Source of the DNA: a virus | Lineage: Duplodnaviria; Heunggongvirae; Uroviricota; Caudoviricetes | Length of the DNA: 6,824 nt | Reading direction: 5' to 3' (one strand) | Virus record (IMG/VR): IMGVR_UViG_2548876698_000001 | Coordinates: 1 to 6,824 of that record | Shown here: piece after piece, positions 1 to 3,000 of the stretch | Numbering within the stretch: the first letter of the stretch is position 1 | How the letters are laid out: each line of letters opens with the position of its first letter | Program-made: the position numbers

Positions 1-3000
1 GGGTGGGCTAACGATATCCGCCTGATGCGTGAACGTGACGGACGTAACCACCGCGACATGTGCGTGCTGTTCCGCTGGGCATGCCAGGACAACTTCTGGT
101 CCGGTAACGTGCTAAGTCCGGCCAAACTCCGCGACAAGTGGACCCAGCTCGAAATCAACCGTAACAAGCAACAGGCTGGCGTGACAGCTGGAAAACCAAA
201 ACTCGACCTGACAAACACTGACTGGATTTACGGGGTGGATTTATGAAAAACATCGCCGCACAGATGGTTAACTTTGACCGTGAGCAGATGCGTCGGATCG
301 CCAACAACATGCCGGAACAGTACGACGAAAAGCCGCAGGTACAACAGGTAGCGCAGATCATCAACGGTGTGTTCAGCCAGTTACTGGCAACTTTCCCGGC
401 GAGTCTGGCTAACCGGGACCAGAACGAACTGAATGAAATCCGCCGCCAGTGGGTTCTGGCTTTCCGGGAAAACGGGATCACCTCGATGGAACAGGTTAAC
501 GCAGGAATGCGCGTAGCCCGTCGGCAGAATCGACCATTTCTTCCATCACCCGGGCAGTTTGTTGCATGGTGCCGGGAAGAAGCATCCGTTATCGCCGGAC
601 TGCCAAACGTCAGCGAGCTGGTTGATATGGTTTACGAGTATTGCCGGAAGCGTGGCCTGTATCCGGATGCAGAGTCTTATCCGTGGAAATCGAACGCGCA
701 TTACTGGTTGGTTACCAACCTGTACCAGAACATGCGGGCCAATGCGCTGACTGACGCGGAATTACGACGCAAGGCTGCCGATGAACTGACCTGTATGACA
801 GCGCGAATTAACCGTGGTGAGACGATACCTGAACCAGTAAAACAACTTCCTGTCATGGGCGGCAGACCTCTAAATCATGTTCAGGCGCTGGCGAAGATCG
901 CAGAAATTAAAGCTAAGTTCGGACTGAAAGGAGCAAGTGTATGACGGGCAAAGAGGCAATTATTCATTACCTGGGGACGCATAATAGCTTCTGTGCGCCG
1001 GACGTTGCCGCGCTAACAGGCGCAACAGTAACCAGCATAAATCAGGCCGCGGCTAAAATGGCACGGGCAGGTCTTCTGGTTATCGAAGGTAAGGTCTGGC
1101 GAACGGTGTATTACCGGTTTGCTACCAGGGAAGAACGGGAAGGAAAGGTGAGCACGAACCTGATTTTTAAGGAGTGTCGCCAGAGTGCAGCGATGAAACT
1201 GGTATTGGCGGTATATGGAGTTAAAAGATGACCATCTACATCACTGAGCTAATAACAGGCCTGCTGGTAATCGCAGGCCTTTTTATTTGGGGGAGAGGGA
1301 AATCATGAAAAAACTAACCTTTGAAATTCGATCTCCAGCACATCAGCAAAACGCTATTCACGCAGTACAGCAAATCCTTCCAGACCCGACCAAACCAATC
1401 GTAGTAACCATTCAGGAACGCAACCGCAGCTTAGACCAAAACAGGAAGCTATGGGCCTGCTTAGGTGACGTCTCTCGTCAGGTTGAATGGCATGGTCGCT
1501 GGCTGGATGCAGAAAGCTGGAAGTGCGTTTTTACAGCAGCATTAAAGCAGCAGGATGTTGTTCCTAACCTTGCCGGGAATGGCTTTGTGGTAATAGGCCA
1601 GTCAACCAGCAGGATGCGTATAGGCGAATTTGCGGAGCTATTAGAGCTTATACAGGCATTCGGTACAGAGCGTGGCGTTAAGTGGTCAGACGAAGCGAGA
1701 CTGGCTCTGGAGTGGAAAGCGAGATGGGGAGATCGGGCTGCATGACTATCAAATCAAATACGCCAGCACACGACAAGGACTGCTGGCAAACGCCGCTTTG
1801 GCTTTTTGATGCACTGGATATTGAGTTTGGATTCTGGCTGGATTCGGCAGCGAGCGACAAAAATGCTCTGTGTGCTCACTGGCTAACTGAGGCCGACGAC
1901 GCGCTCAATTCTGAGTGGGTAAGCCACGGTGCAATCTGGAATAACCCACCGTACAGCAATATCAGGCCGTGGGTGGAAAAAGCCGCTGAGCAGTGCATAC
2001 AACAGCGACAGACGGTAGTTATGCTTGTACCAGAGGATATGTCAGTCGGATGGTTCAGCAAGGCTCTGGAGAGTGTTGACGAAGTTCGTATTATCACTGA
2101 TGGACGGATTAATTTTATCGAACCATCGACAGGGCTGGAGAAGAAGGGAAACAGCAAAGGTTCCATGCTGCTGATTTGGCGACCGTTCATCAGTCCTCGA
2201 CGGATGTTTACTACCGTATCCAAAGCGGCATTGATGGCGATCGGGCAGGGCGTCAGGAGGGCAGCATGAGACGCAGCGACGAAGCATCACCGACATAATC
2301 TGCGAAAACTGCAAATACCTTCCAACGAAACGCTCCAGAAATAAACGCAAGCCAATCCCAAAAGAATCTGACGTAAAAACCTTCAACTACACGGCTCACC
2401 TGTGGGATATCCGGTGGCTAAGACATCGTGCGAGGAAAACAAGGTGATTGACGCGATGATTTATTCGGGGCTATATTCCTCACGCGCCAGCAAAATCTGG
2501 CGTCGGGATTAGCACCCCGGATATCGAAACGGTGCATAACCGCGCTGGCGGTTTTTTTATGCGCTAAGCACAGTCACATTCGCGATTTATGGCGGGCTGT
2601 GTGGGGGAGCCGAAAGGCTCGCCGGATGTTTCGACCGGTAGTGCTAACCCCGCACAGTTCGCCACCACGATGATTAGCACCTGACGGTGGCGAGGTAAAA
2701 ATAATCGAAACGCGAGGTCATTATGGCTGTTCAAATTTCTGTCGAAAACCTTTCCCCTGTTACCTATAACCAGATCCCCGTAATTACTACTGAACTGTTG
2801 GCTCACCTTTACGGAACAAAAATCAAAAACATTTCTGATAACTTTCTGAACAACACGACGCGATTCATGCCCGGAAAGCATTACTTTAAAATTGAAAAAA
2901 ACGAATTACGCGAGTTTAAGAACAGACCCGAAACAATCGGGTTAGTTGGTAAAAATGCCCGCTCCCTCATCCTCTGGACAGAACGCGGAGCAGCCCGTCA

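Follow-up and report, generated by a model that had tools for sequence, protein, structure and literature searches.

The ninE gene of the window, by which we mean the whole 6,824-nucleotide stretch of DNA analysed here, lacks a single A in its third codon. Very probably this is a genuine loss-of-function allele that goes back to one recent deletion and was spread by recombination of a dam-ninE-c4-ant module.

The window is the nin region of an E. coli lambdoid (Stx-phage-like) prophage. By profile search, the genes on the plus strand follow each other in the order P, NinB, Dam, [NinE], Ant, KilAC, NinG, NinH and Q, which places NinE in the nin region with the replication genes and ninB on one side and Q on the other. 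The following genes surround ninE:

243–944, plus strand: P (nin-region profile matches)
941–1231: ren-like ORF
between the ren-like ORF and Dam, plus strand: NinB
1742–2269, plus strand: phage Dam N6-adenine methyltransferase (PF05869, E = 6e-65)
2723–3400, plus strand: antirepressor 1 (Ant)
3469–4197, plus strand: antirepressor 2 (KilAC)
between the antirepressors and Q, plus strand: NinG, then NinH
4986–5420, plus strand: Q antiterminator

At 5430–6824, the window and its closest relative (L008, GCA_014105735.1) show the same arrangement, in which non-coding DNA separates Q from a DUF1737 gene and stx is lacking. The N-terminus of the DUF1737 protein (a nanS-p-like esterase) begins at 6325 in the window. 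In three otherwise similar deletion-carrying prophages (L006, L010 and L013) the gap after Q holds stxA and stxB. The non-coding stretch 3′ of Q contains a full-length Rfam match to the sRNA STnc100 (5901–6101, 148 bits). A 50-aa ORF at 5669–5821 weakly matches positions 196–220 of the 221 positions of PF01555 (DNA methylase; E = 0.075) and is probably a gene remnant.

The ATG of ninE overlaps the stop codon of dam as ATGA. Around this start, the gene is built as follows:

2255–2260, plus strand: Shine–Dalgarno sequence AGGAGG of ninE, 6/6 match, spacing of 5 nt to the ATG
2266–2298, plus strand: residual ninE start frame of 10 codons, from ATG 2266 to the stop codon TAA (2296–2298)
between 2273 and 2274, plus strand: site of the 1-bp deletion, from the alignment with intact relatives
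2274–2447, plus strand: NinE body, 57 codons plus TGA (2445–2447), in the −1 frame relative to the ATG

The start frame reads ATG AGA CGC AGC GAC GAA GCA TCA CCG ACA TAA. Since it ends after 10 codons, no single ORF with a canonical start runs through the whole NinE domain. This bears out the observation of the earlier note that the ATG and the codons for MRR lie in one frame and the rest of NinE in another. When translated, the body (2274–2444) scored 143.3 bits against the Pfam NinE family PF05322 (cut-off 25, E = 2e-42) and covered positions 4–58 of its 58 positions, with exactly the first three missing from the body frame. The body belongs to phrog_288, which is listed in the PHROG category ‘unknown function’. 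An AlphaFold model of NinE predicted a small, highly basic protein of three helices (pLDDT 77, pTM 0.35); the model is of moderate confidence and offers no functional lead.

Comparison with intact alleles directly revealed the lesion. The ninE genes of TW08637, SHP24, CFT073 and an O157:H7 strain read ATGAGACGACAGCGA; against the intact ATG AGA CGA CAG CGA CGA (MRRQRR), the window has ATG AGA CG- CAG. What is missing is thus an A at the third position of codon 3, a codon that is CGA in every intact relative examined. The A lay between G and C and not within a homopolymer. Because CGA and CGC both encode arginine, the window still begins MRR. Restoration of the A yielded a 60-aa protein identical to NinE of the Stx2 phage VT2-Sakai. 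The single-base deletion proposed earlier is thus real, but it had been placed at codon 4 and belongs to the third base of codon 3 (2273/2274); the missing base had been taken for a C, and the CGA CAG common to all intact relatives identifies it as an A.

The occurrence of the deletion in public sequences was determined with a junction 30-mer centred on it, which can match only if the deletion is present. Three of the 5,426 complete E. coli genomes (90-3040, 2013C-3492 and 2013C-4830) and one IMG/VR contig were matched; there was no match among 50,697 phage records and none for the junction among the GTDB species representatives. Further carriers were retrieved through a 53-aa protein of RefSeq, WP_029784131.1, and are therefore conditioned on that product: 10 of 10 loci fetched in this way contained the identical ATGAGACGCAGCGACGAAGC string. 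The exact protein is recorded on 347 contigs (333 blocks). A sequence exactly matching the window was not obtained, and an exact look-up of its KilAC antirepressor gave no hit. The best relative, L008, aligns without gaps to the whole 6,824 bases of the window at 99.7% identity and has the deletion too.

These data bear on the question whether the source has an intact ninE gene from which sequencing or assembly dropped one A. Assembly errors are most often single-base indels, and an error at 2272–2275 had been considered before. However, the deleted base is located outside any homopolymer (G-A-C), and the identical deletion was observed in three complete genomes, one IMG/VR contig and 10 assemblies from different projects, among them the closest relative, and always on the same 1.3-kb haplotype. 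As the same deletion recurs in independently assembled sequences (at least 14), a local sequencing error can be excluded and we see only a very slight chance that the source gene is intact. The same recurrence upholds the view of the earlier note that a genuine pseudogene might be present. At this position, related prophages fall into intact relatives with a single frame and carriers that share the identical deletion, which is the comparison that had been recommended there.

Other disrupted ninE alleles in public data were single or rare, mostly singletons, which fits weak constraint on ninE in prophages. The frameshifted allele, with approximately 350 contigs and at least five backbones, exceeds any other disrupted ninE allele seen here.

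In principle, full-length NinE (MRR followed by QRRS...) could be restored by programmed −1 ribosomal frameshifting or by transcriptional slippage. A −1 shift after codon 3 would give exactly the wild-type protein, and AGA, the second codon, is a rare codon. Against this, the region 2256–2310, including the 33-nt overlap of the two frames, contained no slippery heptamer of the type X XXY YYZ, and the overlap is also free of homopolymers. No homopolymer longer than five was present, and the longest run in 2256–2450 was AAAAA at 2375, far from the deletion site. Stable RNA structure was not detected downstream either, as the minimum free energy of 2250–2370 was −18.3 kcal/mol, with z = +0.5 compared with shuffled sequences. 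Finally, conservation is not seen either: the allele with two frames is rare (3 of 5,426 genomes), and all other relatives examined encode NinE in one frame. With neither heptamer nor homopolymer, a fold no better than shuffled sequences and no conservation, recoding is unsupported and we give it next to no chance. The suggestion that the frameshift might require a special explanation thus found no sequence signal for programmed recoding in its favour.

In public databases the allele is already present, annotated there as an intact 53-aa protein, and it is an ordinary pseudogene. The annotated start maps to the window as follows:

2286–2288, plus strand: ATC start of the RefSeq/PGAP 53-aa ‘NinE family protein’ WP_029784131.1 (the ATC is at 4637 of locus L001, whose positions 4637–4798 correspond to 2286–2447 of the window)

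Between 2235 and 2447 the body frame is open and free of ATG, GTG and TTG; its near-cognate codons are, in full, ATC 2286, ATA 2295, ATC 2298, ATC 2355, CTG 2400 and ATC 2409. The earlier statement that there is no alternative in-frame start therefore holds for canonical start codons, but it has to be set beside the RefSeq annotation of ATC 2286, an unverified pipeline prediction. The same ATC start was called at L019 (1501–1662), a lambda-type locus, though an intact GTG is located seven codons upstream. Hence the ATC call reflects a habit of the pipeline and is no evidence of initiation. In our reading, WP_029784131.1 is the remnant of a frameshifted gene presented as intact; it looks like a propagated start-site mis-annotation.

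Translation from ATC 2286, or re-initiation at ATA 2295 or ATC 2298, would lead to an N-terminally shortened NinE and make the allele a hypomorph or variant and not a null. This is compatible with the RefSeq entry, with the body being intact in all carriers and with the overlap of the short-ORF stop codon TAA (2296–2298) with the ATA and ATC codons of the NinE frame; moreover, near-cognate start codons initiate measurably in E. coli (bioRxiv 10.1101/063800). However, no Shine–Dalgarno sequence was found before ATC 2286 (best match 3/6), ATA 2295 or ATC 2298. Even a good ribosome-binding site raises AUC initiation to no more than approximately 1–2% of AUG, and AUA likewise reaches this level at best (bioRxiv 10.1101/063800). 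In addition, the product would lack the N-terminal R-R-S, which does not vary among 19 diverse NinE proteins and is encoded upstream of ATC 2286, and the annotated start can be attributed to the annotation habit seen at L019. We therefore regard a shortened NinE as unlikely, and trace re-initiation at ATA 2295 or ATC 2298 is unlikely to matter.

The undamaged ninE body in all carriers is explained by a recent origin of the deletion, and purifying selection on a translated product would give the same picture. One could imagine that a low dose of N-terminally truncated NinE, made by re-initiation at the ATA or ATC past TAA 2296–2298 or from ATC 2286, was favoured and that the allele spread for this reason into Stx and non-Stx backbones. 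We consider this quite improbable.

The origin of the deletion was approached through the surroundings of ninE in the carriers. Between approximately 1735 and 2980, the carriers differed from the window at only 0–4 positions, whereas the intact alleles differ from it at many positions in the same block. The shared block of approximately 1.3 kb comprises dam, ninE, the c4-like RNA module and the start of ant, and occurred on five or more distinct phage backbones, some of which have stx. The replication modules of the carriers are of different kinds (O/P, DnaB-helicase type or IstB-like type), and Lar/DUF7301 or HNH insertions occur in some carriers. Downstream of the block, the following arrangements were found:

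L006, L010, L013: NinG-NinH-Q with stxAB
L008 and the window: NinG-NinH-Q without stx
L001, L004, L005, L012: YbcO-RusA-Antiterm
L011: RusA-NinH-Q

Because every carrier shares one haplotype block, these sequence comparisons point to one mutational event that was carried by the ~1.3-kb module and recombined into several backbones. For the same reason, recurrent mutation of a hotspot was rejected. The low divergence of the block argues for a recent event, and a recent event accounts for the still intact ninE body.

A second cluster of 53-aa NinE proteins (P0041) was considered as a possible independent N-terminal lesion and was rejected, as the locus concerned (L019) has an intact GTG start. 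Two of the carriers, 90-3040 and 2013C-4830, contain an IS3-family element between cII and O (L001, 361–1574; L005, 1725–2938). These insertions suggest that the prophage copies in both strains are decaying at other places too.

Directly 3′ of the ninE stop codon and shortly before the antirepressor gene at 2723, the window contains an immI-like regulatory RNA module (2448–2669) with the following elements:

2448–2477: predicted sigma-70-like promoter, TTGACG-18-TATATT
2471–2523: c4-a1b1 targets (Rfam match)
2484–2558: isrK Hfq-binding RNA, with its terminator at 2538–2558 (Rfam match)
2585–2669: C4 antisense RNA (Rfam match)

Since a promoter-like site and a terminator belong to this c4/isrK-like module itself, the early stop in ninE would not be expected to exert a strong polar effect on it. 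The module is also relevant to the idea that the deletion itself was selected for, either because the loss of NinE benefits the prophage or its host or because the early stop alters expression of the c4/ant module. The presence of the allele in several backbones and on ~350 contigs, and the position of ninE immediately upstream of the regulatory RNA module, would agree with this idea. Yet the allele is rare (approximately 0.06% of the complete genomes) and absent from the 50,697 phage records, linkage to the dam-c4-ant block accounts for its spread, the RNA module has a promoter-like site of its own and no phenotype is known for ninE. Selection for the deletion is thus highly improbable.

Codon 3 (CGA) has lost its A, between 2273 and 2274. 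We propose that ribosomes starting at the strongly signalled ATG 2266 read 10 codons and halt at TAA 2296–2298. The other 57 codons of NinE would be stranded in the −1 frame, where they have no usable start, so that functional NinE would be absent. The deletion would have arisen once in the dam-ninE-c4-ant module and later have been passed by recombination into several lambdoid backbones, presumably by neutral hitch-hiking. Lambda requires neither ninE nor the nin region as a whole and still forms plaques when nin is deleted (PMC10695390). Because ninE is dispensable, its loss would carry little or no cost, and this, together with the recent date of the event, might explain why the gene body looks perfect.

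The loss as such has little biological weight, as ninE is accessory and dispensable, and prophages often carry frameshifted accessory genes. Its value lies elsewhere. The annotation can be corrected, because the 53-aa ‘NinE family protein’ with an ATC start in RefSeq masks a pseudogene, and the 1-bp deletion provides a clean single-origin marker for recombination of the dam-ninE-c4-ant module among lambdoid and Stx prophages.

Among the known ninE genes, that of lambda (NP_040637.1, lambdap66) is 97.8% identical to the window at the nucleotide level over 2274–2452 and has the same position in the nin region, between ninB and ninG/Q. It differs at its 5′ end: lambda ninE starts with GTG GCG AGA (MAR) after ninD, whereas the window type starts with ATG AGA CGA after dam. 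Homology between the two begins exactly at CAG 2274, which assigns codons 1–3 to the dam-type mosaic module. A mosaic joint is thus located inside the first ninE codons (2266–2274, compared with 2091–2100 of lambda locus L016), right at the deletion site. The frameshifted string that encodes WP_029784131.1 (53 aa) is identical to that of the window. A close intact counterpart is NinE of lambdoid phages of the VT2-Sakai/933W type (NINE_BPVT2; WP_001254256.1), recorded in UniRef as NINE_BPVT2 on at least 997 contigs. As in the window, its gene directly follows dam with an ATGA overlap and precedes the same ant module; its 60-aa product equals the window protein once the A is re-inserted, whereas the window itself is broken after MRR.
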